DNA from: Eledone cirrhosa
Lineage: Eukaryota
Assembly (NCBI GenBank): GCA_964016885.1
Contig: OZ024745.1
Span: forward strand, 67,580,001-67,644,000
DNA length: 64,000 nucleotides
Direction: 5' to 3'
The notes under the pieces were generated by a model. The model had not been told where the DNA came from and did no database searches. It saw only the letters and a list, made by a program, of their open reading frames with translations. The position numbers and the translations under genes were made by a program. Within the stretch, counting starts at the first letter, position 1; every line of letters begins with the position of its first letter. Of this stretch, positions 315-29,479 are shown in pieces.

Positions 315-394
<80 letters not shown>

Positions 395-460
395 ACAGTA
401 AATGCTTAACTACAGGGCAGAAAACCATGATATTTATACTCTACTTTTCTTTAAGTATAT
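243..460. repeat. Inverted repeat (about 70-bp arms) around a (TA)n core
   Basis: 243-320 is the reverse complement of 389-460 apart from a short indel. Confidence 0.85.
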
Positions 461-520
461 ATATTATATATATATATATAATATATATATATATATATAA
501 TATATATATATATAATATAT

Positions 521-552
<32 letters not shown>

Positions 553-644
553 ATATATATATATATAATATATATATATATATATAATATATAATATATA
601 TATAATATATATATATATAATATATATATATATATATAATATAT

Positions 645-690
<46 letters not shown>

Positions 691-744
691 TATATATATA
701 TAATATATATATATATAATATATATATATATATATAATATATAT

Positions 745-776
<32 letters not shown>

Positions 777-857
777 ATATATATATATATATAATATATA
801 TATATAATATATATATATATAATATATATATATATATAATATATATATATATAATAT

Positions 858-889
<32 letters not shown>

Positions 890-897
890 ATATATAT

Positions 898-976
<79 letters not shown>

Positions 977-1096
977 TATATATAATATATATATATATAA
1001 TATATATATATATAATATATATATATATATAATATATATATATATAATATATATATATATATATAATATATATATATAATATATATATATATAATA
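457..1096. repeat. (TA)n microsatellite interrupted by extra A residues
   Basis: Direct reading. Confidence 0.98.
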
Positions 1097-1139
1097 TACG
1101 ATATTAAATAAATGGAAACTATATTTATAAAACCATATT

Positions 1140-1205
1140 TATTTCATTATATATATTTCAGGGATATCATATTAAAAATATGGTATGCCTTCATCAGACA
1201 AAATA
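1140..1205 (-). ncRNA. Mirror copy of the same hammerhead in the left arm
   Basis: Reverse complement of 1360-1425. Confidence 0.7.
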
Positions 1206-1359
1206 CAATATAAACAGTCTTATAAATAGATAGATTTGACATACCTTGCAACTTCAACTTCCATTTAAAAAGTTGATTTACTACCAAATCAACTTTTTAA
1301 ATGGAAGTTGAAGTTGTAAGGTATGTCAAATCTATCTATTTATAAGACTGTTTATATTG

Positions 1360-1425
1360 TATTTTGTCTGATGAAGGCATACCATATTTTTAATATGATA
1401 TCCCTGAAATATATATAATGAAATA
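1360..1425 (+). ncRNA. Minimal type I hammerhead ribozyme in the right arm of a palindrome
   Basis: TATTTTGT-CTGATGA-AGG...CCT-GAAA-TATATA-TA-ATGAAATA. Confidence 0.72.
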
Positions 1426-1562
1426 AATATGGTTTTATAAATATAGTTTCCATTTATTTAATATCGTAAATATACTCCAAATACTTGTTGAGTGCTTTTA
1501 TATCAGTTATAAATATTTACTCGTTGTAACCCAACAATTTAAATAAAACTTTGCATATATAT

Positions 1563-1595
<33 letters not shown>

Positions 1596-1614
1596 ATATA
1601 TATATATATAATAT

Positions 1615-1696
<82 letters not shown>

Positions 1697-1697
<1 letters not shown>

Positions 1698-2679
1698 TAG
1701 CATTAAAGCCCGGCGTTGCACGGGGTCAGTAAGTTACCAAAGTTAGGTTGCACCACCCATTTTATGGCACCACTTTTTTGTCTGCCAGGCACTGGGTGAA
1801 TGAATTGCAGACCTGGACTGCCGAAGCAGGAGCTGCGCCAGCAGTGACAATTGTAGTTTGGCCTATGGATATTATCTCTGTGCAAAGAAGTGTTGAAATT
1901 TATTGTTTCACAGTACTTGCGCAACACGCGCGTAGACGATTCCAGCCGAACAACAGAGCTGCGATGGAGTTGTTCTGCATGGTTGTCTAATGTGTGTTTT
2001 CTAAATTTAAGACAGTAGGGAGGGATGTGACATGGGGGAGAGTTCGCTGCTGTTTCTAGCAGGTTTAGTGACCTCATAGAGGATATGTGTTTTCTAAATT
2101 TAAGATAGTAGGGAGGGTGTGATATGGGGGAGAGTTAGCTGCTGTTTCTAGCAGGTTTAGTGACCTCATAGAGGATATTATTGTGTATAGTAAATAAACT
2201 GATACTTCTTTCTTCCACGTTCGTTGAGAGATGTTTTAAAAAAGATTTATCGTTATTTTTTTTTGTTGTTGAATAAATTTATCTGTTGCTTTGGAATAAT
2301 TGTTGTCATTGAAGTAAATAAATGTTTGACCGTTCCACACTCAAAAACAAACGTTCTCTCTCTCTCTCTCTTCTTTCTTCGGCGTTCCTAAAGGAAGTTT
2401 GTAAGTTTAAGCGTATATAAGAGAAAGTTGCAGCATGTATGCAGTTTTATCGAATTTTAAGGGGAGTAGAGAGAGGTAATCAGATTGTATTAGAGGGGGT
2501 AAAGCGTAATGTATTTAGTTTTATTGATTATTTCCGTAATTGTGGGTGGGTTTAAAAGAAATAAATAGTGGTTGACCTAAGTTAGACCATTTACAACATT
2601 CTTACAGTCTTTGAGTCAAATCGGTTTGAAATTGTGCAAATGTATAAACATGGAACATGCACACACTGCCTTTTATAGA
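1697..2679 (-). mobile_element. Non-autonomous Helitron-like element
   Basis: Minus-strand 3' end CCCGTGCAACGCCGGG hairpin followed by CTAG|T; probable 5' end TCTATAAAAGGC; internal ~90-bp tandem duplication at about 1995-2176. Confidence 0.7.
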
Positions 2680-2683
2680 TAAT

Positions 2684-2866
2684 TGTTTCCACTTTTGGCA
2701 CAAGGCCAGTAAATTACCCAGTACATTACTGGTACTTTATTTTATCGACTCCGTAAGGATGAAAGGCAAAGTTAACCTCGGCGGGATTTGAACTCAGATC
2801 ATAAAGGGACATAACTATGCTGGAAAGCATGGCGTCCGACCCTCTACCGATACTGCCAATCCACCG
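2684..2866 (-). mobile_element. tRNA-derived SINE, family 1
   Basis: Head GGTGGATTGGCAGTATCGGTAGAG, B-box GAGTTCAAATCC, body GCCTTTCATCCTTACGGRGTCGATAAAATAAAGTACCAG; TSD AGATAAT. Confidence 0.85.
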
Positions 2867-2872
2867 AGATAA

Positions 2873-2926
<54 letters not shown>

Positions 2927-3493
2927 AGGTGTTTACCATTCTTTTCAATTTACAGGGAAATGCATATATTTGGCCTGTAAGTTGGTAGTGTCAGAGTCAC
3001 GATAAAATGCTCTTAGTACACTCTATAAAGTGGTTCTTGTTAGGAAGAGCATCCAGCTCCCTGTACATTCTGTAGGGTAGACAGCATTAGGAAAGGCATC
3101 CAGCTATAGAAACCAATCCAAAACAAAGTGAATGAGCAGGACCTAGTCCCCTGACCAGTCAGGCATGCAATGGTCATCTAACCCATACAAACTTAGAAAA
3201 TAGACATTAAATAGTGATGATGAGTCCTAATATGTATGGTATTAATATTTGGTCCAATAATCAATTATCTTGATTATTTGATAAATAGTTTTACTTAGTC
3301 TAATGAAATTTCAGGTGTTTCTATGAGATTATAATGTTCTGGAAATTGAATTGCCAAATTCATTAAACTCAACTGTTTTTTTAACTCAACATTCCTAAGA
3401 TAAATTGCAGCTACATTGTGATATATTCATCCACAGAAATCTTAATATAAAACTAATACATTAAATTAAGCACAAATAACTTTAATGACTTAC

Positions 3494-3728
3494 CAAAAGT
3501 TGCAATCCATTTTAACAGTAGAATTTATATCGAATTTCCTGCCTTCATATTCACATGGGCACTCCACCCTATCAATACATTTGCCATTTTCAAAAAATGT
3601 TCCTAAAGGACATCGACAAGTGGACACACAAGGTAAATCACAGTCACTAATTTCATCAGTGTTGCCACATGTTCTTGGACATGGATCACTGCATTCATCA
3701 AACACCAATCCATCTGGGCAAGTGATTG
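3494..3728 (-). CDS. Exon 20: TIL domain plus start of E/VWC-like repeat
   Basis: ITCPDGLVFDECSDPCPRTC...CRCPLG...CPCEYEG...DCNF; tag acceptor, TG|gtaagt donor. Confidence 0.9.
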
Positions 3729-6700
3729 CTAATGAAAATAATAGATATTTTGTTTTAGAAAAAAATTTAATATTTTCAGTATTTTTTTTTTTTTTTAAAT
3801 CAGAAAATATATTAGAATGAGCATGCTTGTTGAAGTATTAAGAAAGTGTTTTAAAATAACTCCAAAAGAAAATGTAATCAAGAGGTTGTTGTATTAGAAT
3901 TCGATATAGGTAAGAAGGTGTATGTCTCAACCATACATTTTAAATGTACAAAATGTTTCAGATGTACAGGATTTATTAGTTATAGAAAGATTTGGATAAG
4001 AGATAAGGATTTCTTTATTGATAATAATGATTTCTTTACTTTATAAAGCAAAAAATAATGGTATATATTATTTGCTGTTTTGGCACACAAAAAAAGATGA
4101 AAATGATAGTGTCATAAACACCTAAAGAAGAAAGTAATGCTTACGACAAATATTTCCTTTCCTCCATTTTGGAATATATTTTCCCATTAATAAACATTCA
4201 TAGGAAATAGTTTCAACTGCTATACATGCTGCTGCCATAGCTTCTTGTGTATTATCAGAAGCACGAATCATTGAGAAACAATTTTCCATTAAAACTGGTT
4301 TCTTTTCCTGAAACAAGTTATTCATATTTTAAAGAAAACAGGGAAAACTATTGTTATTAGCAGTATCGGTAAACTGTTGGACAACATGCTTTGTGACATA
4401 TAGTTACAGCCCTTTACGTTCTGGGTTCAAATCCTGCCATGGTTAGATTTACCTTTAATGGAATGAGAGGCTGGCAAAGGAATATGTAATGGAAGAGAAA
4501 CAGTGTTAGAGAGGTGGGTAATGAAGGAAAACAATGCTGGAGAGGGTAATGGAAAGAGGGAGAGAGTAATGGAAAGAGAGGCAATAATGGAAGAGAAACA
4601 GTGTTAGAGAGGGTAATGGAAAGGGAGACAATGCTGGGGAGGTAATGAAAAGAGCAAGACACTGTTGGAGAGGGTAAGGGAAAGAGATAAAATAATAGAA
4701 GAGAGACAGTGATGGAAACAACATGTTTGTTGGTGAGAAAGTAAGTGATAGAGATGGGCAATGAAAGAGAAAGTATGTCAGTAACAAAGGGAATTGGGGA
4801 GCAGGAGTGATGGTTGGAAGCATTATTGTATTAAAATACAGAAATATTGGTACTGGAATATATTTTAGCATTGGGCAAAACTGAATTATGTTTTCAATTG
4901 TGATTTAGAATTAAAACTAAACTAAAACGCTATTAAAATAAATATGTCTGTTTCAATGACTTATTAGAATGCTAACAGATTATCAAAACAGAAACCAAAG
5001 TAACAGCTTCATTAAAATATTGAGCAATTTAATGTTTAAAAAATAGTAAGTAAAAGATATTAGGAATTAAATTTTGTCACTACTTTAAAATAAAAGAACT
5101 TACAGAAATATCACAGTTATAAAAAGAAAGGGCAATCCGGCAAACTGCGTTAGCATCTGGATATCTGTAATCAGGGGTTGTTGAAAGTCTGTTATTTTTA
5201 CACTGCAAAATAAAATCATGTTTACTTAAATGTTACATTAAAAGTTAGTAAAAGAGAAAATGTATTGATAATTATGAAGAACTTTTATTATTACATTTCT
5301 ATGGCAATATCAGTAGAGGGTTGGACGCCATGCTTTGATGCATAGAGTTACGGCCCTTTCCATTCTGAGTTTAAATCCCGCCAAGGTTAACGTTGCCTTT
5401 CATCCTTATGGGGTCGATAAAATAAAGTACCAGTAATGCACTAGGTAATTGCTGGCCTTGTGCCAAAAGTAGAAACAATTATTATATTTCTATAGTGAAT
5501 AAATATTCCTAAATGTGTTCATAGTACTGAATAAAAGGAAAAGAAACCAATGTTAAAAGCTTCATTCAGAAGAATAACTGAATTCTTATACATGAAATTC
5601 ATATGTAAGTGGCTGAGTATTCCACAGACACATGTACTCTTAATGCAATTCTTAAGCTGAACCAGCATGACATGATGTGACAAGAATGGACCTTCTAATT
5701 ACAGATAATATCCAGGGAAAGAGAGAGAGAAAGAATTCCTACAAATTTGACTTAGATAAATCAGTCAATAAGAATCTTAATGTTAGTACCTCATTATTAT
5801 ATGGCAATTAACTACACACAGACATCTTACAATGTATGCAGAGAAAGACCATTTGTGTGAAATTTTCATGAATTCACTCCAGCCTCTGATCCACAGACAA
5901 GCTGTTCCCTCTCTCTACTATTTCAACCACTACAACAATTGTCTCTGTTCACAGAGCTCCACTCTGACAATCTTGACTCACTTTATCTCACCTCCTTACC
6001 TTACTCATATTGCTTTCAACCCCATAAACTCTGGACTAACAACCACATCCAGACCTTTCTTCTCGGAACATCAGCCCTCAGGAATTCCCTCTTGTCACAT
6101 ATCTTTACTACAGTTGTCAACATGCAACAGTTTAAGCAGAATGCTAATAGCCTCACTCTCATCAGACTCACATGGCCTGAAAATGTAATGGCTCCAACCA
6201 ATACCTCCAAACCAAACTAATAAGAAAAATATATTTGACTTAACTAATGGTTTAAATGCCAAAGAAACATTTTTAATAGAAAACAATATTAATATATTTG
6301 AAAAATTTGTATACTTTTGTAATTTTGTATAATAAATAACATTTATTAAAACTGCTGAAATATTTTGTAAAATTTACATCTCAAATCAGTTAAGGTACCT
6401 ACTTTATTTGGCGGTGTTATATATGCTTTAATAAATTCTTCTGCATTAGCTAAACAGTCTCCTTCACGCCTGAAGAAATCATCTAAGAATAGATACAAAC
6501 AATTATACATGATAAAGATTATTGAATAAGAAGGGATAGAATTTAAATTTCATAAGTTATATCTTCATTAAAAATTTGATCATTTTCAGCAACTTTATAT
6601 AACACCTTTATATGAATACCTTTCTACGATGTAGTGGAGACATGAATTCTAACTCTTCAAGGCCTTTTTTGGAAGGGATCTGCTTTAAAATTTAGAATTC

Positions 6701-9700
6701 AAATCTCCACCTTAACATCATTATCATCATCATTGTTGTTGTTTTAACGTCTGCTTTCCCTGCTAGCAAGGGTTGAATGTGTCTACATAGACAAAGTCTG
6801 TACTGAAGCAGAGTCACTGATCTCCCAAGCAAACCAGGGATCTGTGTCTCACTTATGTATGGTCTCATGTTCCATCTAGTCCTCAGGAATATCTTAAACA
6901 GACACTTCTTACATAATAAACCATAAATTAATATAGCATTCTAGGAAGTATCAATTTATTCTATATTTAATTATAGACTTTGAAAACATAGTTTTTAATA
7001 ACATACACTGCTAGCTCAACATATTTTCATAGAAGTATAATAAATATACAATTTGAAATGGTAAATTGTGTCAAAAAAAAAATAGTATGAGTAAATAATG
7101 ACTACAATAGCAACTGAGGCTTAGTCATATCAAATTATTGAGTCAGAATCAATTTACTTACTGTTTTCATTTCCATCATAGTTACTGCATAATCCTCTAA
7201 GATTAGGGCTTTTGAAGAGGGATTCTGAAGGAATAATCTGAATATATAGTCTTTCATCCATCAATATACTTATTGGAATAGTTGAAAATTGAATAGCTAT
7301 ATAGTCATAACGTCTTGATACTTCAACACCTGGGGAGAAAAAACAACAGAATATCTCTTTTTGAATACATTTCTAGACAACAATGTCTGTTTTAAATAAA
7401 TCAATTTATCATACATTTGTATACAATAACACTTTGAAATCATAGAAATATGAAGCCAGTGAAGCTTGGATGCTCAGTTGAAAAACTAGATAGAAAGAAT
7501 ATCAAATGGTTTAATTGGCAATTTCATTATTTCACAATGTAAATGGTTACAGTATTTTTAAATTATCCTACACCCAGATGTATATATGTATGGACTCCTG
7601 AAGGAGTTGTAGGGTGACATACGGCATTTCTTAGGGCATTTTAAAATTTGGTAGAGCCAATCCCTTCTCCAGGCCTGAGTACAGCAGATTTCTTCCAGAG
7701 AAAGTTAGAGAGAAAAGGGGAAATAGAAATATAGAGGAAGAATCGACCCCAGTACGAGACTGGTACTTTTTTATCGACCTCAAATGGATTAAAGAGGAAG
7801 TTGACCTCAACACCATGATGTCTATTAGAAAAAACTTTCTACTTGTCTATTTACATTTTTATGTAGTTTTAAACATTAAATATAAACAAAAATTCGATCA
7901 CAAGAATCTTTAGGTGAAATATAACTAAATAAATACTATTGTGTGTCTTGGCTTGTTAAAAATTTAGAAGATATTTAAAAAAAGCTATTTGACTAACCAT
8001 CTTTAACTTCTCCATTTACATTCATTGGATTTCCATTCAACAGAACATTTCCTCCCTGAGCTGTCACAATGGTGTTTCCATATTTTACAAAAATTGTCTA
8101 AAGTTGAAAGAGACAGAAAATATAAAGTCATTCTAAAGTTTTATGTTGTATTTCCTTTTGTTTGTTTCTTATGGGGAAGGGATTTTTATAACTAAGAACA
8201 AAGGCATGAAATTTCATTATATTCATATGCAATGAAAATACAAACTAATTTAGATTTTAAAACATTCTATGTTAAAATATAATATAGCACTTAGAGAAAA
8301 AGTCAACATCCTCAATCCTACTAAGCAGCTCCTTGGGCAAGTGTTTCCTACTGTAGCCTTTATATAAGTTCATATAAACAAATAACCTACAGCTAAGCAA
8401 TTCGATGTGTGAAGATCAGTACCCTACTTAAAAGAGAAAGCAGCAAAAGTTGGCATCAGGAAAGTTATTTAAACCATAGAATACTGCTGCCTCCTAAAAA
8501 AAAAGTATCATCCAAACCATGCTAACATAAATAAATGGACATAAAAACAACATTGATGATGGTGATGATGATGATGAACTAAGAGTAAAAGGAAGTGTGT
8601 TAAAGGAACATGTTTTTTCTTTGTGAAGAGACATGCTAGTTTCAGGATTTTGGTGATATACTCTGATACCATACATTTCTAGACGATAGAAACCCATTTT
8701 GACCAGAATGAAGATGCATAATCTGAACTACTTTGAAGTAAGATTCATAAGAGTACATATATGGTTACAACAGGTAACAAATAATTTTCTCATCATAAAA
8801 ACATTTCTGAAAATATTCACTTCTAAATGTGTTTTTCTATCAAGTCTTATTTTGGTTGTAACTACTTTGTGATAGTAAAATATCTCATATAAGGTACAGA
8901 CATCACTGCATGAATAAGAAGTTTGTATTGCTACCATGTAGTTTCAGGTTTGATCCCACTGTGTGGTACCTTTGCAAGTGTTTTATTCCATAGCTTTATA
9001 CTATACTAAGTGGTTGGTGAAAACTATGTGGAAGCCCTCTATAGATGCATGTGTGTGTACATATATGTATGTGTATGTCTCCATGTATATCTTCATGTTG
9101 GTAAACGACTGGTACCAAGTGTTTCATCATCATCGCCGTTTTACGTCCATTCTTCCACACTAGCATGGGTTAGATGGGTTGTCCTGTTGTGGGCAATGCC
9201 AGGTTAGATGACCATGTCTTGCTCATACAGAACTGTTTATTTTGCAAAAACAGCATGTTCTGCAGCTTTACCATTTGACAAGGAAGGATCAATGAAATAA
9301 GTACTATACTTTAAAATATATAAGGTTTGGCATCAAGAAAGGCATCTAGTCATAGAATATTGACTGAAAACCATCCCATGGAAAAGCAGATTTAATTATG
9401 AAAAATATGAAATTAGTGCATACCTTTTCACAGGTCTCAAGTCTTATACAATTTTTGAATGTCAGCTTTATCCACCAGAAATTACTAAATTCAACCAGGT
9501 TATAAACACATGAAGGTGACTGGAGTGTGAAAAAGGAGCCATCAAATGTTCTAATAAGTCTGGTACCTTGGCTTTGACAGGTTGAATCCTTTTTTAGAGA
9601 TTGATCAATTATTGTGGTGTCTAGAAAATTTTGAAATATCATGTAAACATACATTAATAGAATATTTTAGATGTAAAAAGTATGCAACAAATTCATTGAA

Positions 9701-12700
9701 ATATATTTGACTTGGAATATTATGTTTAATAGTTTAACTTGTCTTTGTAATTAATATGGTTTCATAATTTGGTTGAAATTTTGTTGCTATTTTTAGTCTA
9801 TCAAGGTGTGTATTATTTTCTGGTATCAGTTGTAATTGTAAACAAAACTGAAACTATCTTCTTTGTTTTCACTCTGTCTTTCCTGTTTTAAATTACAAGT
9901 ATGTGAATTTCCATTTGGCTTCACAAGTAATTTTTGATAACTTGGATTATTTCCTATTTCAGTTAAATAATGCATGATGGAGTAGAGATTTAAACAATAC
10001 GTTTTCTATATGTATAAAATAGATGCAGGCATGGCTGTGTGATTAAAAAATTTGCTGCAATCAGTTGAGGCATATTGGATAAATGTCTAACTAAAACATG
10101 GAGCCATCCTTTGCAATATAGAGTACAATATTATCAGCTGGGAAGTTTGAGAAATTGTCACTCACGTTAGTCAATCTAAGAAAATATTATTTCAAATGTG
10201 TGTTTTAAGCAAAATTAAAGAGCCATTCTCATATTTATACTCTAAAGCTCAGATAATAAATTTATAAGATAATTGATATATAATTTCCCCACAAAATATG
10301 TAAATGAATAACAATTTAGATCCTTTGTAACATAAATTATTAGTCAATATTACTGCTAAAATTAAACTATATTTGACAAAACCAAACTTTTCTGTTATTG
10401 GAACAAATTTACATCACAATATTGAAAGAACAAAACCAAAAATCAACTTACTTTGATAATTGCACTTGATGCATTCTTTTCCAGGTAACCCCCAAGATCC
10501 ACTATCACGTTGACTACAGCAATCAGCAAGAGTTACAACTTTGCCAACATATTTCTTATAACCAGGTCCATTACAAAGAGTTTTCTCAAAGCAATATTTG
10601 AGAGCATTAGTTGTATCTTGAAAAATAAGAGGCATAAATATAGTTTGCACACAAAAAATTGAACTCAAATTGAAAATGTTAAAGGTATGCTTGATATTAA
10701 TGAAGTGAAAAAATATATGGCATTATTGGCTTTCCCTTCCCAAAACATTCTTGGCATTATGCTTAAATCCGAAACCATTATTCGTGTTAGTGTCTGATTA
10801 TGAATTTTTAACTCAACTTGGCAAAATCTTATAATTTTCTTGCATTGAATAAGAATTAAAGTGTTAAATGAATTTTGAAAACATCAGATTGATGAACTGA
10901 TCACTGGTTATGATAATTCTGTGGAGTAAAGTAGAGCCACCAGCTGTTCTTGAACACACCCTTTGCAATTGTCCATAACTGTGTCCTGAAAACCATAGCA
11001 GATGCCTTCTGCAGTGGGATGTTGAAGGTTTGCAAAACATTAAAAAATCAAGGTGTTTTTACCTGATATTTTATTTTCACACCGGTAGCCTACAAATCCA
11101 CCGATACAATTACATTTATCAGCAGCATAGCAAATTCCTTCATTTTGACAAGGAGGGATACATAATGCTGAAAAAAAAAAAACTTTATTGAAACATAACA
11201 CTGACATTTGTGTTAACATTATGTGTATTATTAACAACAACCATCATCTCTGCCTATGCACCACAATCAAATCTAATCAATGAACAAAAAGATCAGTTTT
11301 ATAAAGTCCCTTGCCTTAAAAACTAGAATAAGAAGAGGGAAGTAAAAGTTCAAGGATCTTTGACATTTGTTACCAACGATAGGCTTCTCTCACCAAGCAA
11401 AAAAATAAATTGTATGATGCTTGTGTGAGAGGTGGAATGTTGTATGAATGCAGAGGATATGTGAAGCCTGGAGAGAAATTCATCAAACATGCTCCACTGG
11501 ATAATGTGTGAAAGGCAAAGCACAGATGAGCTGTAGAAGCAACTGGGCGGGCAAAAGAGAAATCAGATGTACTGTACAGGAGAGAAAGTTGCACAGATAC
11601 AGACGTGTAATACATATGGATGGGGATCTTTGGGTGAAGAAGTGGCAAGAGTCCTAAGTGGAGAAATGCAGTAGCAGAGAAAATTTGGCTAAACAATGCA
11701 ATCATGAAAAAAACAGACGTAAGTACAATGATTATTGTTATTGGCAGTATCGGTAGAGCATCAGAAACCATGCTTTGCAGCATAGAGTTATGGCCCTTTA
11801 CGTTCTGAGTTCAAATCCACCTAGGTTAACTTTGCCTTTCATCCTTATGGGGTCGATAAAATAAAGCACCAGTCATGCACTGGAGTAATTGCTGGCCTTG
11901 TGCCAAAAGTAGAAACGTTATTATGAGCTTTTTCTTTATATTTAACTTTTAAAAAACTTTTCAATGGTACAAACTATCAATCTAATTTATTAATATTTGT
12001 TCCATAAGAAACTATTAAATGAGATATTTTGCTACTTACGTATATTGCATTTAGTGCCAGTCCAACCAGGGCAGCAAACTAATTCCTTTTTTATACTTAA
12101 TCTAAAATGAAATTTGTTAATCATATGTATTTATCAAGACAAAAATAAATGTTTTTCTTTTCTTCACCTAGTTAACTTAATAAATAAAGAATTTTAGAAA
12201 TTTCATTTCATCTTTATTCATTAAACCTTTTGATACCAAACTGCTTGAAACCATCCCTGACTTTCTGATAGTCTAAATCTGTCTCAAACCAGGAAGCTTG
12301 TCAGACCCGTGCTTATTCCATTTTCATGGCATGAAGTGACTGAGAGTAGAAGACTCCCAACTGGACAAGACGCCAGTCCATTGCAGGGTTAAACCCCCAG
12401 ATATTGCTGATACCCATTTACAGTATACTGGGGCAACCTGAAATGAAGTGTTTCACTCAAGAATACAACACACAACCCAGTCCAAGAATCAAACATTATG
12501 ATCGTAAGTCTCACAGCCTTACCACTAGGCTCTGTGCCTCCACAGACTTTCTGATAGAAAACTATTTGTTTTAAAGTGTTTATAGTTATCTAAAAACTTT
12601 CCTTCATAATTTTACATAACAGCCTTTGTTAAGTTAATATACAAAGTATATAAAAATTAATATACAAAGTATTTCATTAGAAATATGATAAACTAGTGTT

Positions 12701-15700
12701 CCTTATTCTATCTCACATTTAGCTGCCACTAAAGATTCTTTCTTTATAAAACTTTCATAAATCAGTTGGTTATTATAAATGAATTTCTTGTGTTCTAGTC
12801 TTATATTCAGTGTCTTAGTGAATAAGAATACTACTACCTAGAAATAAAACCAATTAAAATATCATGTGAATATAAATATTGAAAAAGATTCATTTCTAAA
12901 GAAACACCTATTTATATCTTTGATATCAAAAATTTTATTGCCAACGATTTTAAGAAGATTCACGATGAGATATTACATAATGATCTATAGATAATTCAAA
13001 ACGATTTAGAACAACTTATGAAAGAAGAGAAATTTAAATAACCCTATGGATAGAGTATGATCATCTTGACTAACATCTTATGTGTTTGAATAGCCTTATT
13101 CTATTTCAGGTATTGACAACCTTTTTTGAGCAGTGGGATGCATAGGATGTGACTCTTCATAAGGCGGGCCTCACTTGTAAAAACTTCAATTTTGAAATTG
13201 TGTGTGCCATTCAGAAAGCCAAATAGGACACAGGTGACTCACAGGCTGCAGTTTACCCATAACTCTCCTATTCTCTAAAGCAAGACACTCAATATCCTCT
13301 TCTAGAAACATAAGAAACTTAGATTCCACAAAGGAGTACCAAAGTAATTCAATAATTTTGATGATTTCTACTGCTGATAAATCTCACACAAATATTAAAA
13401 AATAACTAAAAGAGATCAACAGTAAAGAAATTTTTTTTCTCATTTTTTTTAAATAAAAAAAATATTAAAGCCTTTTTTATGAACTTCATATTTTCAACCA
13501 AAAGTATACTCACTTTTCATAAAAGCATGCTTCACCCGGTTTTCGATTTTTATTATTCACAAGTTTATAACCAACAGCTAATATCAAAGAAGCATCTTTA
13601 CATGAGCCATTTCTTTGGAAATTAGTATATTCAGTTGTGTTACAAAAGTGAAAGTCAAAACTAGAAATAGAGTGAATATACAAAAATAAGTTAATGAGTT
13701 AAAAGTATTAAGAAAAATATTCAATATAAAAGTATATTGCCAGTACTCATGAACAAATATCTCATTAAAAATATTGAAATATGTCTGAATTCTTAGCATA
13801 CATGAAAAAATAGATTTAAAGCAGTTAAAAAAATTAACAAAGATACAAATAGTAAATAAATTGAAAATGTCTTACAAATGAAAAGGCTTACCTTGGCTGA
13901 GATTTTTCAAGAAGTACAGCATCTTGTAATCTATATTAAAATATATTAACATCATATCATGTAAGCAATATAACATTATTTAAACATATTTCATATTGCA
14001 CAATAAAACACAGAGTTATATTTCGATAATATAAAATATATCTATCGAGAAAGAAAACCAGGTGATTTTGATCAAATAAATTAAAAATATAATTATTCTA
14101 GTAAAATAATACTACTTACCTTTCTTGGGTTGCTTCATTTTCTTTTAGAAGGGGTTGACCGACGCTCCTGCAATTGGAATAACAATCACATCCTTACGGG
14201 GTCGATGAAATAAAGTACCAGCAATGTACTGGGTAATTGCTGGCCTTGTGCCAAAAGTAGAAACATTTATATTACAGTATCGGTAGAGAGTCGGACACCA
14301 TGCTTTGACGCATAGAGTTACGGCCCTTTCCATTCTGAGTTCAAACCCTGCCAAGGTCAACTTTGCTTTCATCCTTACGGGGTCGATAAAATAAAGTACC
14401 AGTAATGTACTGAGTAATTTACTGGCCTTGTGCCAAAAGTAGAAACAATTATATTAAAAAAACACAACTACTAGTTTCCATAGAAAAGTATGTGTATTTT
14501 TCTGAAGTCTGCATTGTCCACAACTGACCGTCATACAGAGGGTGGTTAAGAAAACAATTAGCTTACGCTCTGAACTTTGTAGTTATTCTGGGTTGTTTAG
14601 TCTCCCAAACTGTTTTACTAAATCTTAGAAAGTAGATGTTCCCTGGGTCTATTTCTTGAGTTCTACATTTAAAGTGAGGTTGTCTCTATCAGTTGAGCCA
14701 AGGTATGGAAGCACATGTACTATGTTTCATTCCATAACATTGATCTTTATGCAAGGAGGAAGCATGAGAGACTTGTCCTAAAAACTTAGTCTTCTAAGTA
14801 CTTAGACACTTATTAAGTATTAGGAAACGTACTGAATGTAAATAAAAATGCTTACCTCAGCTGATAATTTTCACGAGGTACAGCATCTTGTAATCTATAT
14901 TAAAATATATTAACATTGTATCATGTAAGCAATATTATATTATTTCAACAATATGTATTATATCTATCGAGAAAGAAAACCAAGTGATTTTGATCAAATA
15001 AATTAAAAATATAATTATTCTAGTAAAATAATACTACTTACCTTCCTTGGGTTGCTTCATTTTCTCTTTGAAGGGGTTGATCGACTCTCCTGTAATTGGA
15101 ATAACAATCATTATATTTAAAAAACACAACAACCACTAGTTCACAGAGAAAAATATAAACAAAATTAATTATGCAGATCAAACTGAAATGAAAAATATTT
15201 CTTTCTATTTGGTAAAAATATCAGGTTTTGCAGTAAAATTATTTTAGAACAGTAAATGTTTATGTTTTCATATTTTGTCTAATTATTATATGTGGGATAG
15301 ATAAAAAGTATAAAGATCCCATAACTCCTTGTGGAGTCATAGAAGCACAGTCATAGAGCATGTCTAGGGCACTTTTAAACCTGGTAGAGCCTAGCCCTGT
15401 CCTGGTTTGAACACAGCCAAAATGTTATAGAGAGAGAATCAACCCCACTACTGGACTGGTACTATTTTTATCGACCATAAAAGAATGAGAGGCAGAGTTG
15501 ACTACGGAGTGATTTAAAATCAGACCACACAATGAGGTGGGACGAATACTGTAAAGCATTCTATCCGACATCTTAACAACTCTGCCAAAGATTGTTCAAT
15601 ATATCATACAGGTTCATGTATTGATGATATTAGGTTGACTTTGCCTTTCATCCTTACGGGGTCGATAAAATAAAGTACCAGTAATGCACTGGATAGTTGC

Positions 15701-18700
15701 TGGCCTTGTGCCTAAAGTAGAAACAATTATTTAATACATAGAGAAGGACGATGGATTTGCAGAAAACTTGTAAGGAACACAGGAAGTGTGTATTTTTCTG
15801 AAGTCTGTGTTGTCCACAACTGACCATCATACAGAGGGTGGTTAAGAAAACAATTAGTTTACACTCTAAACTTTGTAGTTATTCTGAGTTGTTTAGTCTT
15901 CCAAACTGTTTTACTAAATCTTAGAAAGTAGATGTTCCCTGGGTGTATTTCTTGAGTTCTACATTTAAAGTGAGGTTGTCTATCAGTTGAGCCAAGGTAT
16001 AGAGACACATGTACTATGTTTCATTCCATAACATTGATCTATATTCAAGGAGGAAGAATGAGCGACTTGTCCTCAAAACTTAGTCTTCTTAGTACTTAGG
16101 CACTTATTAAGTATTAGGAAACGTATGGTGGCACATGGCTTAGTGGTTAGAGCATTGGCCTTGCAAGCGAAAGGTTGTGAGTTCAATTCTCAGACTGGGT
16201 GATGTGTTGTGTCCTTGAATAAGACATTTATTTCACATTGCTCCAGTTTACTCAGCTGTAGAAATGAGATGATAGGACTGGGGTCCCTATCATTCCACTG
16301 CAAAAAAGCACCCAGCCCACACTGTAAAGTGGACGTGTAGGCGCCACGGAAAAAAAGTACCCAGCACTCACTGTAAATGAGGTTGGTGTTAGGAAGGGCA
16401 TCCAGCTGTAGAAATCAAGCCAGAATCAGTTCCCGTATGCCCACAACAGGATAACCCGTCTAACCCATGCTAGCATGGAAGAATGGACGTAAAACGGTGA
16501 TGATGATGATTATTACACTGTACATGTTCAACATTAATAATACATAGAAAAATAGATTTGAAACAGTTAAAGAAATTAACAAAGATGAAAATCAGTTCCT
16601 GTATGAGCAAGGCATGGTCAGCCGACCAGACACTGCACACAACAGGACAACCCGTCTAACCTATGCTAGCATGGAAGAACGGATGTAAAACGGTGATGAT
16701 GATGATGATGATGATTTCATATTGCACATTAAAACACATTAGTGTTATATTTCGATAATATAAAATATATCTATCGAGAAAGAAAACCAGGTGATTTTGA
16801 TCAAATAAATTAAATATATAATTATTCTAGTAAAATAATACTACTTACCTTTCTTGGGTTGCTCCATTTTCTTTTAGAAGGGGTTGATCGACGCTCCTGC
16901 AATTGGAATAACAATCACATCGATGAAATCAAGTACCAGTAATGTGCCAAAAGTAGAAACATTTATATTACAGTATCGGTAGAGAGTCGGACACCATGCT
17001 TTGATGCATAGAGTTACGGCCCTTTCCATTCTGAGTTCAAACCCCGCCGAGGTCAACTTTGCTTTCATCCTTACGGGGTCGATAAAATAAAGTACCAGTA
17101 ATGTACTGAGTAATTTACTGGCCTTGTGCCAAAAGTAGAAACAATTATATTAAAAAAACACAACAACTACTAGTTTCCATAGAAAAGTATGTGTATTTTT
17201 CTGAAGTCTGCGTTGTCCACAACTGACCATCATACAGAGGGTGGTTAAGAAAACAATTAGCTTACGCTCTGAACTTTGTAGTTATTCTGGGTTGTTTAGT
17301 CTCCCAAACTGTTTTACTAAATCTTAGAAAGTAGATGTTCCCTGGATCTATTTCTTGAGTTCTACATTTAAAGTGAGGTTGTCTCTATCAGTTGAGCCAA
17401 GGTATGGAGGCACATGTACTATGTTTCATTCCATAACATTGATCTTTATGCAAGGAGGAAGCATGAGAGACTTGTCCTAAAAACTTAGTCTTCTTAGTAC
17501 TTAGACACTTATTAAGTATTAGGAAACGTACTGAATGTAAAATGCTTCATCACAATTAATGTAAAAATATATTACACTGTACATGTTCAACATTAATAAT
17601 GCATAGAAAAATAGATTTCAAACATTTAACGAAATTAACAAAGATAAAAACACGAAATAAATTGAAAAAGTTTTACAAATAAAAATGCTTACCTCAGCTG
17701 ATAATTTTCACGAGGTACAGCATCTTGTAATCTATATTAAAATATATTAACATTGTATCATGTAAGCAATATTACATTATTTAAACATATTTCATATTGC
17801 ACATTGAAACACATTAGAGTTATATTTCAACAATATGTATTATATCTATCGAGAAAGAAAACCAAGTGATTTTGATCAAATAAATTAAAAATATAATTAT
17901 TCTAGTAAAATAATATTACTTACCTTCCTTGGGTTGCTTCATTTTCTCTTTGAAAGGGTTGATCGACGTTCCTGTAATTGGAATAACAATCATTATATTA
18001 AAAAAACACAACAACCACTAGTTCACAGAGAAAAGTAGGACATTAAGCAAATAAGAAAGGTCAATATATGATACAAGTTCATGTATTGATGATATTATTT
18101 AATACTTAAAGGGCGGTGGATTGGCAGTATCGGTAGAGGTCGGACGCCATGCTTTCCAGCATTGTTACGGCCATTGCCATTCTGAGTTCAAATCTATGCC
18201 TTTCATCCTTACGGGGTCGATAAAATAAAGTACCAGTAATGTACTGGGTAATTGATGGCCTTGTGCCAAAAGTAGAAACAATTATTTAATACTTAAAGAA
18301 GGGCAATGGAGTGACAGAATTGGAAGAGCATCGGCCAACATGCTTTAAGTTTCATAGTTACGGCTTTTTATGTTCTGAGTTCAAATTCCGCCCAGATTAG
18401 ATTTAATACTTATATATATATACTCACGCAAGACCATGTTAACGTAAAGAAATCCCCACCAATCCAACAATTCAATGTTAGACACGAATTGAAGTAAATG
18501 TAATAAAAGCTGATCCCACCGTGGGACCTCTAAAATATCTTCTGTCCTTCCTACTTTTTCAAAATTTTGGATTCTTTAATTTCTTGGATCCTATGAAGTT
18601 CCCTCCACTTCAGATGACACAAGTGGATTACCATCAAAGACTATGGCGGATTTTAATCGACTTCCCTCTCTCCCAAATTGTTGGCCTTGTGCCTAAATCG

Positions 18701-20363
18701 GAAACCACTATTTAATACACACTGGTACAATTACTTGAGTATTACGTTGTTCAGAAATTAATGAAGATTTTACATTTTTATTTCTTTAAAAGATAAGAGC
18801 TAATGCAAGGTTTGTAAATTTATGTATCATTTTAAGGCTCTTTTATGCTCGTTCTTTCTACATAATATAATTTATATTTTAGGCAATATCTTTCAATTTA
18901 AAATGTCAAACTCCACCACTGTGCAATATAAACGGCTGGAAACATTAATGAATTTTTGTCTCAGGAAGTGTTAATGAATGCATGGTGCAGCATTAGTTTC
19001 AAAAATGCCATCATAATTAATTCAATATTCAAGATAAGGTCTGTCGCATACATTCTTCTGGTATTGACAACAATAAATTGAATGGGTTGGTGGAAGTAAA
19101 TCTTTATGCAACTGTTCGGGAGTGTGCTGGCAAGCACAATTTATGGATTGAAAGAGTAGCATATTTTCTCATTCATGTAACACTTAAAGTAATATGATTG
19201 TGAGCCCAACTATATATATATATAAACATGTAATTATATATATGTGTGTATGTGTGCATATATAAATGTACATATAAAGTGTATATATTACCAATGACTA
19301 AACTAACTAATGTGTCTTTCCTTTTTTAAAAAAAACAGTGAGGTGGTAATTTTCAATTATGAGAATGAGGTTCTTAACTTCACTGACAGCTCGCCTAACC
19401 GAGGTAACTAGTGATGCTCGTGAGGGTGCTTGGTTGTTCCAGCACATCAGCCTCGCCATCACCTGAGGTAATGCTGCAAGCATGCTGGCTTGCCTCAAAA
19501 ATTATTAGGGAGGTTTCCCATGCTCCTCACGACACTGGTAGTGGTTCATTTGCCCACCCCTTTCGCCTCCCTTTTGTTGTATGTGGTCCTAGATGTATGC
19601 ATTACCTGCTTTGCATATATTACACATGTTTGTGCTTTCATTCTGTAACCATTGAATTATTATATTTTTTATACAACTGTAAATAAAAGATTTTCTAAAT
19701 ATGATTTGTGCAAAATATATTAAATTTAGTCTTATTCAATGAAAATTAATATTTACCTTCTTTGATTTCTTCTGTTTTGTGTTGCTATATCCTTTCTCCT
19801 GAATTTAAAAAGATGATTTTTTGTAAATACACAATTATTTCATAGAAGAAAACAAAATATATTTTAGGAGTTAAATTAAAATAGTAATAATTATTTTTAA
19901 TTCTGCATAAATGTCAATATTTACAAGACAGAGAGTAATAGGAAACGAAATATAAACCTTATGTGTTATTGATAATCCTGAATGAAGAGCAAATTCAATC
20001 CCATGTAGATTTGAATGCAGGATCATGAAGTGGGTTTTTTTTTTTTTGTTTTTTTTGTTTTTTTTTGGGGGGGGGGGGGGGGGGGGCCTGCAAACTATAG
20101 AATCTAGCACTACCATTTGTGCACAGTTCATGAAATGAAGAATAGAAATGCATGCACATGTACACACACACACACACATATACAAGAGACCAGTTTGAAA
20201 ATTGCTCTCACAGTGAGAAACGTGATCAAATGTTTGATCACCAGAGTTACAAGACCTACATATTGTACAAATATTTAATTATTAAAGAACAACAACCATC
20301 AGAAAAATCTTTCTTATCATTTTCAAATATATTTTACTGTACTAAGGTCTTTATAAATTATAT

Positions 20364-20575: not shown

Positions 20576-21911
20576 CACTATCTTCACATCCTTAATTGCT
20601 TGGTCTATCATCTAATGTCAGGATTTATGGCTGGTAGCTCATTTGGGTCTACATGGAGTAGACCCTCACTGTCCCATTTGTTTTCTTCATTCATCAAATC
20701 TATAGCTCAGTCCAATTGTTCCGTGTGCTGTAGGTCTCTTCTATCATATTTCCTGGAAAGAATGAAGTCTATTTGGCTTATATATATATGCCATTGACTG
20801 GTAGGTATTCATGTGTCTGGTTGGCTAGATTCCTGAAATTTGTCACAAATTGTTAGATAGTATGCATCCTAATGCACCAGAAGCTCCGCATTTCTTGTAC
20901 AATACCCATATCTTCACTGAACACAGAGAACTTCTCATGATGTTCCCCAATGTGTCTATTGAAGTTGCCAGTTGTGATAAAAAAAAGTCAATGTCATTCA
21001 TCATTAAAGTAGTTTTCATGAGGACCACATAAAAGTGACCCCCTCTGCACATTTGTAAGTCCAGCTTGTGGAACATAGACTGAGATTGTCGTAGCAGTTG
21101 TATTACCCAAAGTTATTTTAAGTTTAAATATCATATTACACACTCTGGCTACCTCAATTCCCTTGTCCCCCTATTTCTCAGTTAGAAGTATTCCTATATT
21201 GCCGATACCATCACTTTTACCCACTAAGATAAACATTTGTTACTTACCTGCATTGAAATTATATCTCACATTTGTCATTTGCAGTACATTCTGCTATTTA
21301 CCACACTGTGGTTGTATGTTAATGAGGATTTTTTGTTTTAGTCTTGATATGTTTTTAGTATATTCTAACTATGAGGTTATGATTAAGATATATGCATGGT
21401 GTGTTTTGTAATATATATATTTATATATAAAATTAGAATTTTATTTCTCACTCTAACACATATATGTGTGTGCGTATGCTTACTTGTATATATATATTCA
21501 TTTTATTGAGGCTAAAGAGGGAGTCTTGTTACTCTAGAGTGTTGTCTGTTTATCACAAGGTCATCAGACAAGAACAGATATGTGTGTGTATATATATATT
21601 TGTGTGTGTGTGAATGTATGTATGTATTCTTTGCTCTGTACATATACATTTGTATGTAAGAAAGTGTGTAGTTATAACAAATATTTCCAAAGATTACATG
21701 AGATGATCAAAAGGAATTGTTCTGTGTAAATACTTTAGGTGATTATGAAAATCATCAAATCCTTATTACACAAATTGTAAAAAAAAATTAGCCACATACA
21801 CCAAAGAGATTAATATATAAAAACTTACTGTGCTAATACAGATGTTGCTGTGAGAGCCCAGATTACAGGAACAGCAATGACAATAAATCTGCAAGTAAGA
21901 CATCTCATCAT
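3494..21911 (-). CDS. Secreted VWD/C8/TIL protein (SCO-spondin/otogelin/mucin-like); 20 exons, continues beyond the left edge
   Basis: GT-AG exons joined in phase by hand: 21911-21829 (signal peptide MMRCLTCRFIVIAVPVIWALTATSVLAQ), 19798-19757, 17971-17924, 17731-17693, 16896-16849, 15089-15042, 14894-14856, 14167-14120, 13930-13892, 13660-13514, 12101-12040 (CCPGWTG, EMI-like), 11167-11063 (EGF), 10616-10452 (TB-like), 9620-9424 (TFDG, VWD), 8097-7998, 7329-7162 (GLCSNYDG), 6482-6403, 5202-5104, 4307-4145 (C8-like), 3728-3494 (TIL + E). Total 1955 nt with no internal stop. Confidence 0.88.
4145..4307 (-). CDS. Exon 19: C8-like domain
   Basis: EKKPVLMENCF...ACIAVETISYECL...WRKGNIC; cag acceptor, gtaagc donor. 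Confidence 0.85.
4485..4770. repeat. Purine-rich degenerate minisatellite
   Basis: Recurrent GAGAGGGTAATGGAARGAGAAACARTG. Confidence 0.7.
5104..5202 (-). CDS. Exon 18: VWD-C8 linker
   Basis: CKNNRLSTTPDYRYPDANAVCRIALSFYNCDIS; phase 0-0, canonical sites. Confidence 0.8.
5303..5482 (+). mobile_element. SINE family 1
   Basis: Same consensus as 2684-2866. Confidence 0.85.
6403..6482 (-). CDS. Exon 17: end of VWD
   Basis: (N)DFFRREGDCLANAEEFIKAYITPPNK; phase matches both neighbours. Confidence 0.8.
7162..7329 (-). CDS. Exon 16: VWD
   Basis: Ends LRGLCSNYDGNEN, matching the VWD GLCGNYDG signature. Confidence 0.9.
7998..8097 (-). CDS. Exon 15: VWD
   Basis: TIFVKYGNTIVTAQGGNVLLNG...; tag acceptor, gttagt donor. 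Confidence 0.85.
9424..9620 (-). CDS. Exon 14: start of VWD
   Basis: STCQSQGTRLIRTFDGSFFTLQSPSCVYNLV. Confidence 0.9.
10452..10616 (-). CDS. Exon 13: TB/8-cysteine-like module
   Basis: YCFEKTLCNG...VTLADCCS...GSWGLPGKECIKC; phase 1-1. Confidence 0.85.
11063..11167 (-). CDS. Exon 12: EGF-like domain
   Basis: CIPPCQNEGICYAADKCNCIGGFVGYRCE; phase 1-1. Confidence 0.9.
11741..11922 (+). mobile_element. SINE family 1
   Basis: Same consensus. Confidence 0.85.
12040..12101 (-). CDS. Exon 11: EMI-like C-terminal half
   Basis: LSIKKELVCCPGWTGTKCNI; canonical sites. Confidence 0.85.
13514..13660 (-). CDS. Exon 10: EMI-like N-terminal half
   Basis: FDFHFCNTTEYTNFQRNGSCKD...EACFYE; 147 nt, phase 2-2. 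Confidence 0.8.
13892..17971 (-). CDS. Array of seven duplicated micro-exons (48-nt A type and 39-nt B type), exons 3-9
   Basis: A: 17971-17924, 16896-16849, 15089-15042, 14167-14120 (xVDQPxxxENxATQxR). B: 17731-17693, 14894-14856, 13930-13892 (LQDAVPRENYQL / LQDAVLLEKSQP). All have AG/GTAAG sites and are open in phase 2-2. Confidence 0.75.
14190..14452 (+). mobile_element. SINE family 1 (partial plus full copy), duplicated at about 16920-17150
   Basis: Same consensus; lies inside the exon-array duplication. Confidence 0.8.
16128..16512 (+). mobile_element. tRNA-derived CORE-like SINE (family 2) followed by an RTE-type tail ending in (GAT)n
   Basis: Head GGCTTAGTGGTTAGAG...GAGTTCAATTC; central GTGTCCTTGARYAAGACA..TTGCTCCAG. 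Related copies near 12290-12545(-), 22370-22475(-), 40785-41050, 44050-44170, 46032-46150, 55430-55670(-). Confidence 0.75.
18111..18395 (+). mobile_element. SINE family 1, one full and one partial copy
   Basis: Same consensus. Confidence 0.8.
19757..19798 (-). CDS. Exon 2 (42 nt, basic: RKDIATQNRRNQR)
   Basis: ttcag acceptor, AG|gtaaat donor; phase 2-2 fits exon 1 and the array. Confidence 0.7.
20570..21080 (-). mobile_element. Highly degenerate LINE endonuclease/linker fragment
   Basis: Remnant SQIDFIL motif (APE domain) and an AIKDVK..KA linker-like segment. Confidence 0.45.
21829..21911 (-). CDS. Exon 1: signal peptide
   Basis: ATG, hydrophobic core, V-L-A cleavage motif, CA|gtaagt donor. 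Confidence 0.8.
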
Positions 21912-26644: not shown

Positions 26645-28860
26645 CTATAGCATATTTAAGTCAGTGTGTGTATATATAGCACATGTAAGTCAGTGTGTGT
26701 ATATATATATATATAGCACATTTAAGTCAGTGTGTGTATATATATAGCAAATTTAAGTCTGGCACACAGACTTAAATGTGCTATACATACACATACTTTG
26801 TCTTAAATGTGCTATACATACACATACTTTGTCTTAAATGTGCTATATATATACACATACTTTGTCTTAAATGTCCTATATATACACATACTGACTTAAA
26901 TGTGCTATATATATACACATACTGACATAAATGTGCTATATATATACATACCTTGTCTTAAATGTCCTATATATGCAAACACTGACATAAATGTGCTATA
27001 TATATACACACACTGACTTAAATATGCTATATATATACACATACTGACTTAAATATGCTATATATATACACACAATGACTTAAATGTGCTATATATATAC
27101 ACACACACTGACTTAAATATGCTATATATATACACATACTGACTTACATATGCTATATATATACACACACTGACTTAAATGTGCTATATATACACACACT
27201 GACTTAAATATGCTATATATATACACATACTGACTTAAATATGCTATATATATACACACACTGACTTAAATGTGCTATATATACACACACTGACTTAAAT
27301 GTGCTATATATATACACACACTGACTTAAATGTGCTATATATATACACACACTGACTTAAATGTGCTATATATATACACACACTGACTTAAATGTGCTAT
27401 ATATACACACACTGACTTAAATATGCTATATATATACACATACTGACTTAAATATGCTATATATATACACACACTGACTTAAATGTGCTATATATATACA
27501 CACACACTGACTTAAATATGCTATATATATACACATACTGACTTACATATGCTATATATATACACACACTGACTTAAATGTGCTATATATACACACACTG
27601 ACTTAAATATGCTATATATATACAAATACTGACTTAAATATGCTATATATATACACACACTGACTTAAATGTGCTATATATACACACACTGACTTAAATG
27701 TGCTATATATATACACACACTGACTTAAATGTGCTATATATATACACACACTGACTTAAATGTGCTATATATATACACACACTGACTTAAATGTGCTATA
27801 TATACACACACTGACTTAAATGTGCTATATATACACACACTGACTTAAATATGCTATATATACACACACTGACTTAAATGTGCTATATATACACATACTG
27901 ACTTAAATATGCTATATATATACACACACTGACTTAAATGTGCTATATATATACACACACTGACTTAAATGTGCTATATATATACACACACTGACTTAAA
28001 TGTGCTATATATACACACACTGACTTAAATGTGCTATATATACACACACTGACTTAAATATGCTATATATACACATACTGACTTAAATGTGCTATATATA
28101 CACATACTGACTTAAATATGCTATATATATACACACACTGACTTAAATGTGCTATATATATACACACACTGACTTAAATGTGCTATATATACACACACTG
28201 ACTTAAATGTGCTATATATACACACACTGACTTAAATATGCTATATATACACACACTGACTTAAATGTGCTATATATATACACACACACACACTGACTTA
28301 AATGTGCTATATATACACATACTGACTTAAATATGCTATATATATACACACACTGACTTAAATGTGCTATATTTATACACACACTGACTTAAATATGCTA
28401 TATATATACACACACTGACTTAAATGTGCTATATATACACACACTGACTTAAATGTGCTATATATATACACATACTGACTTAAATATGCTATATATACAC
28501 ACACTGGCTTAAATATGCTATATATATACACACACTGACTTAAATATGCTATATTTATACACACACTGACTTAAATATGCTATATACACACACTGACTTA
28601 AATATGCTATGTACACACACTGACTTAAATATGCTATATTTACACACACTGACTTAAATGTTCTATATATACACACACTGACTTAAATATGCTATATATA
28701 TATATACACACACTGACTTAAATATGCTATATATACACACTGACTTAAATATGCTATATATATATACACATACTGACTTAAATGTTCTATATATACACAC
28801 ACTGACTTAAATATGCTATATTTACACACACTGACTTAAATGTTCTATATATACACACAC
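26645..28860. repeat. Minisatellite, ~30-32-bp unit ACTGACTTAAATRTGCTATA(TA)nCACAC, roughly 70 copies
   Basis: Direct tandem array 26765-28860 preceded by 3-4 inverted units at 26645-26760. Confidence 0.95.
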
Positions 28861-29479
28861 TTTGTTTTAAATGAAGAATTAGTATTGTTCTTGTTGTTAC
28901 TACTATTATGCAATCCTTTTCGTCTTTTTACCTATCCCAACCAGACAGTCCTATACAAGCGAGACACGGTCTCCCAACCAATCTTGCCTCAAGTGGGACA
29001 ATTCCCGTCTAAACCCATGCTAGCATGGAAGATAAGCGTTAAACGATGATGATGAACCACTACAAATGCTATGCACAAATGAGAAAGCCTATACATGCTT
29101 GACTTGTTGGAAATAGCAGCCAAATCTCCCTCAAATCTCACCAAACTTTTTTTTTTAAATGAATCATTTGATGATGTAATTCTAAGTTGCCTGTATGTAG
29201 ATAAGATGAACATAATTGGAATGATTTTTATCATGGGTCTGCTCAATCAAGGCTGACCTAGGGCTAAATAACAACAACAATCACCCACAACTGCTATTTG
29301 ATTATTGAGATATTCTTTAAATGTCAGATTATCAAATGTCACATCTTGTTAAATGCATTGATGAGTATTGAGGAAAAAAAAAAAACAGTGACAGCTGTAA
29401 TCATAATATTGATTAATAACTTAGACCAGACAATAGATATACACTTCTGATCACAAAGTCATTGTCATATTCATCATCA

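Follow-up and report, generated by a model that had tools for sequence, protein, structure and literature searches.

Symmetric exons multiplied by internal tandem duplication encode disorder-prone regions of proteins (Schad et al. 2013, PMC3632108; Ivanov and Pervouchine 2022, PMC9013439; these and the papers below are cited from parts of their text). In a 64,000-nt stretch of the Eledone cirrhosa genome (GCA_964016885.1, OZ024745.1), called the window here, the minus strand carries an array of predicted mini-exons, four copies of a 48-nt exon A and three of a 39-nt exon B, which resembles those cases in its symmetric exons, its tandem origin and its product, predicted here to be disorder-prone. 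There is no difference in principle; the E. cirrhosa array is a young molluscan case, in which homologous exon-like copies stand in tandem with homologous flanking introns, and both the intron copies and the history of the array are readable. Judged by its predicted domains, the host is an octopod SCO-spondin-like (VWD-C8-TIL) gene, and the array lies between its putative signal peptide and an EMI-like domain. The explanation that we regard as probable is that tandem exon duplication grew a tolerated, lineage-specific, disordered N-terminal tail, with near-constitutive inclusion of its exons. The locus would then be a clear young example of a disordered tail growing by exon duplication, an ordinary route of gene growth.

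In anatomy, the array comes closest to one in Schistosoma mansoni, where the 27-nt exon 2 of SmPoMuc is repeated with its flanking introns in units of about 1 kb, up to about 20 units (PMC2576457). Like SmPoMuc, a secreted mucin-type gene whose repeated introns are more than 93% alike, the E. cirrhosa gene has short exons that recur with their introns close to its 5' end, at an A-to-A spacing of 922-1807 nt, i.e., an exon-plus-intron repeat of roughly 1 kb. However, SmPoMuc is a multigene family with documented transcript variation, whereas the E. cirrhosa array comprises two predicted exon types and seven copies at the one locus seen.

Schistosome micro-exon genes (MEGs) and the composite VAL-6 likewise carry small symmetric exons behind a signal peptide, which is putative in the E. 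cirrhosa gene, and VAL-6, like that gene, joins a micro-exon stretch to a folded domain (PMC4350168). In MEGs, the coding region consists mostly of micro-exons and skipping has been shown (PMC4350168), whereas the E. cirrhosa array, made of near-identical duplicates, is a small front part of a large multidomain gene. Within the window, about 118 codons lie in small symmetric exons against more than 500 in ordinary exons; the E. cirrhosa gene does not belong with the micro-exon genes of schistosomes, because its coding region consists mostly of ordinary exons.

The gene shares its order of putative signal peptide, EMI-like, EGF-like and VWD-C8-TIL domains with molluscan SCO-spondin-like proteins (XP_036356616.1, XP_014786686.1 and GAB1608825.1; limpet P-vulgata_3, PMC7333891), whereas the N-terminal spacer is absent from the Argonauta, scallop and snail models and is represented by other sequence in O. 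sinensis. No paper on the locus or its accessions was found in the literature searched, whose coverage left out most subscription papers.

Anatomy of the array and its spacer

The order proposed in an earlier note on this DNA, A1-B1-A2-(no B)-A3-B2-A4-B3, is matched by the seven copies located (Table 1), and no extra A or B copy was found elsewhere in the 64-kb window. That note also described the exons as multiples of three running from phase 2 to phase 2, which applies to every A and B copy, each being open in phase 2 between AG and GTAAG borders. The pairings that it drew are equally clear: A1 and A3 differ at 3/48 positions, A2 and A4 at 2/48, and B1 and B2 at 0/39, against 5-6/48 between the A types (A1 vs A2, 6/48) and 6/39 between B1 and B3. 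The copies, their phase and their order support its wider proposal of a recently amplified, frame-neutral array encoding an N-terminal spacer, as far as predicted coding goes.

With all copies included, the spacer has 118 residues, with no Cys (0), three aromatic residues, 20 K/R and 19 D/E. Repeats of the SmPoMuc type are rich in Ser, Thr and Pro for O-glycosylation; the E. cirrhosa spacer, unlike the SmPoMuc repeat, is Ser/Thr-poor (9/118) and, with Pro at 7/118, is not Ser/Thr/Pro-rich.

Host gene

The best matches of the gene are the O. sinensis model XP_036356616.1 and the O. bimaculoides model XP_014786686.1, both named SCO-spondin-like. Between 13660 and 3494 lie eleven exons, most of them at about 58-82% identity to the O. 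sinensis model; together they give 506 codons with no stop (0), and no exon after the TIL exon was found in window positions 1-3490. TIL is recognized with an E value of 2e-11, while VWD and C8 are weak on single exons and strong in the Octopus models. Exon D gives no Pfam hit and has a Cys pattern, ending in CCxGW, that is conserved in the homologues; the label "EMI-like" for the domain of exons D and E follows this Cys pattern, guided by PMC8487547. The exon that the earlier note had placed at 13660 does exist, with its length corrected to 147 nt (13660-13514), and is itself of phase 2-2; a 59-nt end for it was considered and dropped, since protein homology gives 147 nt. In four homologues (P0006, P0029, P0050 and P0059; Argonauta, mussel and two others), three VWD domains are followed by LDL-receptor A repeats. 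Neither the TSP1 repeats nor the C-terminal cystine knot of chordate SCO-spondin was reported in any of the four homologues scanned (4/4), some of which are partial.

Recognition of A and B as likely exons

Splice matrices were trained on the 11 homology-supported exons of the gene, a small training set, and short phase 2-2 candidates were scored over 23 kb, with the wrong strand (509 candidates) as control. The A copies scored 16.8-18.8 and the B copies 12.6-13.9, compared with 5.2-16.8 for the training exons left out in turn; the seven copies are seven of the top nine such candidates on the coding strand, and their scores were reached by 0-1 of the 509 on the wrong strand. The score of the single-copy exon 2 (11.2) is equalled by two wrong-strand candidates per 23 kb. 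In both Octopus models, a B-like segment stands directly before the D-exon sequence, and in a codon-distance test against the O. sinensis model with a shuffled control, p was 0.037 for B3 and 0.47 for B1; exon 2, whose nucleotide likeness to the O. sinensis repeats had seemed plausible by eye, failed the shuffled control (p 0.18). A and B are likely exons, and their very strong splice sites lean towards inclusion over skipping. In addition, a second AG lies three bases past the acceptor in A2, A3 and A4 (16893, 15086 and 14164, minus strand), which would give 45-nt in-frame variants with scores of 8.9-9.1.

Passive duplication, in which splicing would use only some copies (e.g., the last A and B) and the others would be silent pseudo-exons in a duplicated intron, is an improbable account of these data. 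It agrees with the copies showing no sign of purifying selection, with the destruction of one B and with the intronic block C, in which an open AG..GT stretch was carried along without being a conserved exon, but all seven copies have strong donors and acceptors with local flanks, and there is no obvious bar to their recognition.

A third candidate exon, which would lie in block C as three phase 2-2 copies of 57 or 51 nt, was considered and rejected because its splice score is at chance level and the copy of organism B, a related genome (run X4) that is about 88-93% alike on the pieces shown, has two stop codons. The C1 score of 8.7 is matched by seven wrong-strand candidates per 23 kb, and that of C2 is far lower; we take C as intron.

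The spacer in related genomes

Counts of differences from organism B cover 40 of 339 difference rows and are lower bounds. One of its contigs each lies on D, the B3 region and the C2 region, with depths of 13.2, 16.4 and 12.7, and organism B appears to hold a single B. Among the five differences listed for this B copy, four are replacements and one is silent, and the frame is open. The variable copy number suggested by the earlier note is thus seen between species, as organism B shows a single B-like contig and a single C-like one, both near single-copy depth, and the O. sinensis model carries another repeat in the corresponding place. That repeat consists of a 16-residue unit in four copies and a 17-residue unit in two, and this spacer (residues 42-181) is predicted to be disordered, with an AlphaFold2 predicted local distance difference test (pLDDT) score of 26-32 (<50) and a folded chain from about residue 183. 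For the E. cirrhosa spacer, disorder is suggested by the composition of the window's translation.

Fourteen homologues matching the whole N-terminal query, hand-picked among 150 listed matches, were aligned with the two Octopus models. A signal-peptide-like start is present in 10/16, whose first EMI-like Cys is at residue 24-48; these ten spacer-less homologues include Argonauta hians, scallop and pond snail. The first conserved Cys of the E. cirrhosa gene would be at residue 151 with all seven copies and at residue 48 with exon 2 alone. Among the other 6/16, three begin with a long non-hydrophobic stretch, namely the two Octopus models and P0014, whose start is Asp-rich and whose Cys is at 110, and the remaining three look partial or have no hydrophobic start. 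The spacer seems to be an octopodid addition that is dispensable for the fold.

Both public Octopus models, P0001 and P0002, have no hydrophobic start, while the window offers a clean signal-peptide-like exon; because neither model has such a start, their N-termini and first exons are probably mis-annotated. A restriction-site-associated DNA sequencing (RAD-seq) run of another sample, X5, has almost no reads on the unique array parts.

Probable growth of a tolerated tail and changes among the copies

In the explanation preferred here, the seven copies would mostly be spliced in together and place some 118 residues between the putative signal peptide and the first folded domain, as a tail that would be flexible and charge-balanced, with a length drifting by unequal exchange. 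Gains and losses would be tolerated and the sequence could drift almost freely, since every exon preserves the frame and its product would be flexible tail lying outside the folded core. The tail is judged dispensable from the spacer-free homologues with a signal peptide and from the loss of a whole B exon, and it may be partly trimmed at four putative dibasic sites during secretion.

Changes among the copies were counted by hand on the copy tree, with about 20-25% of sites silent. Within the window, the A copies show eight replacement changes and no silent one (0), and the B copies five and one, giving 13:1 in total (p=0.125 against neutrality, or 0.047 at 30% silent changes); adding organism B gives 17:2 (p=0.14, or 0.046 at 30% silent). 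By comparison, two replacement and six silent changes are found among the differences listed between exon D and organism B, and the array differs from exon D in this respect (17:2 vs 2:6, Fisher p=0.002; B3 alone vs D, p=0.10). By these counts, exon D is under purifying selection and the array is freed from the constraint on the folded part, at a ratio compatible with neutrality.

Several points weigh against a passively drifting, constitutive tail. The borderline 13:1 excess of replacements (p 0.047-0.125) could mean diversifying selection, and the site has expanded in two octopod lineages, a hint that greater length may be favoured. The copies are also too young for intact frames to prove use. 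Moreover, a by-eye match of A to the 16-residue repeat of O. sinensis failed the shuffled control (p 0.41-0.97), and A is, on these comparisons, without a demonstrated homologue outside the E. cirrhosa genome. As gene predictors miss micro-exons, the absence of the spacer from Argonauta and other models is soft evidence.

Some of the same observations would suit a combinatorially spliced, diversifying N-terminal cassette in the style of SmPoMuc or micro-exon genes, placed on a mucus or adhesive glycoprotein whose isoforms vary its surface interactions. Any subset of copies keeps the frame, 13 replacement changes stand against one silent among the copies, a separate repeat occupies the same place in O. 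sinensis, and proteins named SCO-spondin occur in octopus skin mucus (PMC11431876) and in limpet pedal mucus (PMC7333891; P-vulgata_3). However, the A and B splice scores equal or exceed those of the majority of the gene's constitutive exons, the excess of replacements does not clearly go beyond neutral expectation, only two short weak inverted repeats (45-55 nt, 76-80%) occur in the region, and the mucus proteins are tied to this orthologue by the SCO-spondin name only; we consider such a cassette unlikely. Slightly less likely again is its fuller form, an octopodid micro-exon cassette that a SCO-spondin-like mucus or adhesive protein gained in its first introns and that was re-amplified independently in at least two lineages under diversifying selection and is combinatorially spliced, as a SmPoMuc-like variable N-terminus on a gel-forming scaffold of a free-living mollusc. 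If transcripts varied in inclusion, the repeated expansion at one site, together with the fast change of the protein, would suggest that a mucus or adhesive protein of cephalopods carries a variable surface module.

Duplication history

The youngest duplicated halves differ by 22 substitutions in 1135 aligned bases (1.9%), a likeness far beyond chance, and by seven indels, four of them of 11-138 nt. Each half contains A, B, the intronic block, two pieces of short interspersed elements (SINEs) and A, with no terminal B. The near-identity, introns and SINEs included, that the earlier note had reported holds for 18037-16714 against 15156-13988 and fails for its wider span, as the flanks diverged earlier: across three pairs, the post-B core shows differences at 4, 9 and 12 of 53 positions (9/53 for 16586 vs 13844), and the distal pre-A blocks at 13/126 and 5/45 (10-11%). 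Block C, of about 340 nt, shows a similar layering in its three copies, C1 and C3 differing at 5/339 (1.5%) and C2 at 16-19 of about 338 (4.7-5.6%).

A doubling of AB followed by one of ABAB, as had been suggested, is too simple, since the young copy is A-B-A and its flanks are of greater age. We infer three or more rounds of duplication: two older rounds made the three A-B-C units, and a recent round copied A-B-C-A. A unit of about 1-1.4 kb (A, B and the intronic block) would have been duplicated at least two times earlier (5-12% divergence), and the A-B-A segment once more recently (1.9%), probably via unequal exchange between repeats. The B of unit 2 was removed, 138 nt being replaced by 121 nt of a dispersed repeat that has five other copies in the window; no B remnant was found at the replacement site. 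Organism B contigs on B3 and D extend unaligned into window positions 13708-13787, which implies that B and D are separated there by an intron longer than the 231 nt of the window. In the window, the last unit may have lost its C block.

It is very hard to credit that the youngest duplication is an assembly artefact in which two haplotypes were joined one after the other. A divergence of 1.9% is within the range shown by alleles in marine invertebrates, no contig piece spans the whole array, and X1 and X2 are possibly from the assembly's own sample. The stronger argument against an artefact is that the flanks of the twin segments are 10-17% divergent on both sides, so the segments are not alleles. 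Moreover, the 1.5 kb between the twins holds the older C2 block, which has a match in organism B, and X1 and X2 contig pieces (one sample) cover half-specific features with 0-4 differences. Contig depths of X1 and X2, which are not copy numbers, are close to the single-copy D bin for copy-specific pieces (X2 8.6-9.5 vs 8.3; X1 3.4-4.6, with one piece at 6.1, vs 3.7) and about 1.5-2.5 times deeper for shared pieces (X2 13.9-14.9, X1 8.4-9.6). Even if this duplication were an artefact, the older A and B copies would stay.

Junction arginines and processing

Every junction from exon 2, A or B to A or B reads AGA or AGG, i.e., Arg, as the earlier note had pointed out. Its use of these residues as a sign of processing does not follow, because a phase-2 exon ending in AG and followed by A or G can give only Arg; the AG|A/G splice consensus forces the residue, and the copies share ancestry. 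The RRNQRR of exon 2, read earlier as a furin-like site, has the minimal R-x-x-R form only, and its last R becomes Ser if exon 2 is joined to the 13660 exon. The strict furin or proprotein-convertase consensus, R-x-[K/R]-R, occurs 0 times in the 118-residue spacer, which has one R-x-x-R and four dibasic pairs (RK and RR in exon 2, RR at the exon 2/A1 junction and RR at A2/A3), the last at 60-61. From these motifs, trimming of the tail is plausible, and release of defined peptides finds no support.

A polyprotein-like pro-region cut at each Arg junction, with release of short bioactive A and B peptides, is consequently very improbable. Arg at every junction and the four dibasic sites would suit it, and Gly-Arg, an amidation signal, could act as such at the ends of A1 and A3. 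Yet in phase 2 the AG|R consensus dictates an Arg at the junction, a strict furin motif is absent and the junctions are mostly monobasic. Typical repeated neuropeptides are conserved in sequence, unlike the A and B peptides, which are not conserved in O. sinensis.

Coordinates and other features of the window

Table 1. Positions in the window of the array, its duplicated segments and the exons of the host gene
Feature	Position	Strand	Evidence or remark
Exon 1, coding part, signal-peptide-like, ends in phase 2	21829..21911	-	translation, hydrophobic stretch by eye
Exon 2, 42 nt, phase 2-2, basic (RKDIATQNRRNQR), single copy	19757..19798	-	splice score 11.2
A1, 48 nt, phase 2-2 (NVDQPFQRENEATQG)	17924..17971	-	splice score 16.8
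B1, 39 nt, phase 2-2 (LQDAVPRENYQL)	17693..17731	-	splice score 12.6
Intronic block C1, with 57-nt open AG..GT stretch 17322-17266, judged non-exon	17190..17530	-	
A2, 48 nt (SVDQPLLKENGATQE)	16849..16896	-	splice score 18.8
Dispersed-repeat fragment in place of the unit-2 B exon	16592..16714	.	
Intronic block C2, older copy, weak donor	15787..16125	-	
A3, 48 nt (RVDQPLQRENEATQG)	15042..15089	-	splice score 16.8
B2, 39 nt, identical to B1	14856..14894	-	
Intronic block C3, twin of C1	14493..14831	-	
A4, 48 nt (SVGQPLLKENEATQE)	14120..14167	-	splice score 18.8
B3, 39 nt (LQDAVLLEKSQP), positional counterpart of LQNERIDKYQP in the O. sinensis model	13892..13930	-	
Youngest duplicated segment, upstream copy (A-B-C-SINEs-A)	16714..18037	-	
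Youngest duplicated segment, downstream copy	13988..15156	-	
Exon D, 147 nt, phase 2-2, first half of EMI-like domain	13514..13660	-	70% to Octopus model P0001
Exon E, second half of EMI-like domain (CCPGW)	12040..12101	-	
Nine further exons, EGF-like, Cys-rich, VWD, C8, TIL	3494..11167	-	gene extends past traced part

Upstream of the gene, a 31-bp satellite of about 69 copies occupies window positions 26646-28861, and its first ~115 bp (26646-26759) appear inverted. A 16-bp minisatellite of about 50 copies, with several frames open, lies at 32161-32955. Exons of a radial-spoke-head-like gene are present at 43232-48046 (plus strand), the first of which matches Pfam PF04712 at E 1e-4, under the curated cut-off, and a transposase remnant lies at 48004-48519 (minus strand; Pfam PF13843, E 2e-10). 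Frames at 59304-61900 (minus strand) presumably resemble a Penelope-type retroelement, with no Pfam hit for the one frame scanned. In addition, a GC-rich retroelement at 50200-54440, with RNase H-like matches in a 423-codon frame and similar ends, is probably a long-terminal-repeat element.

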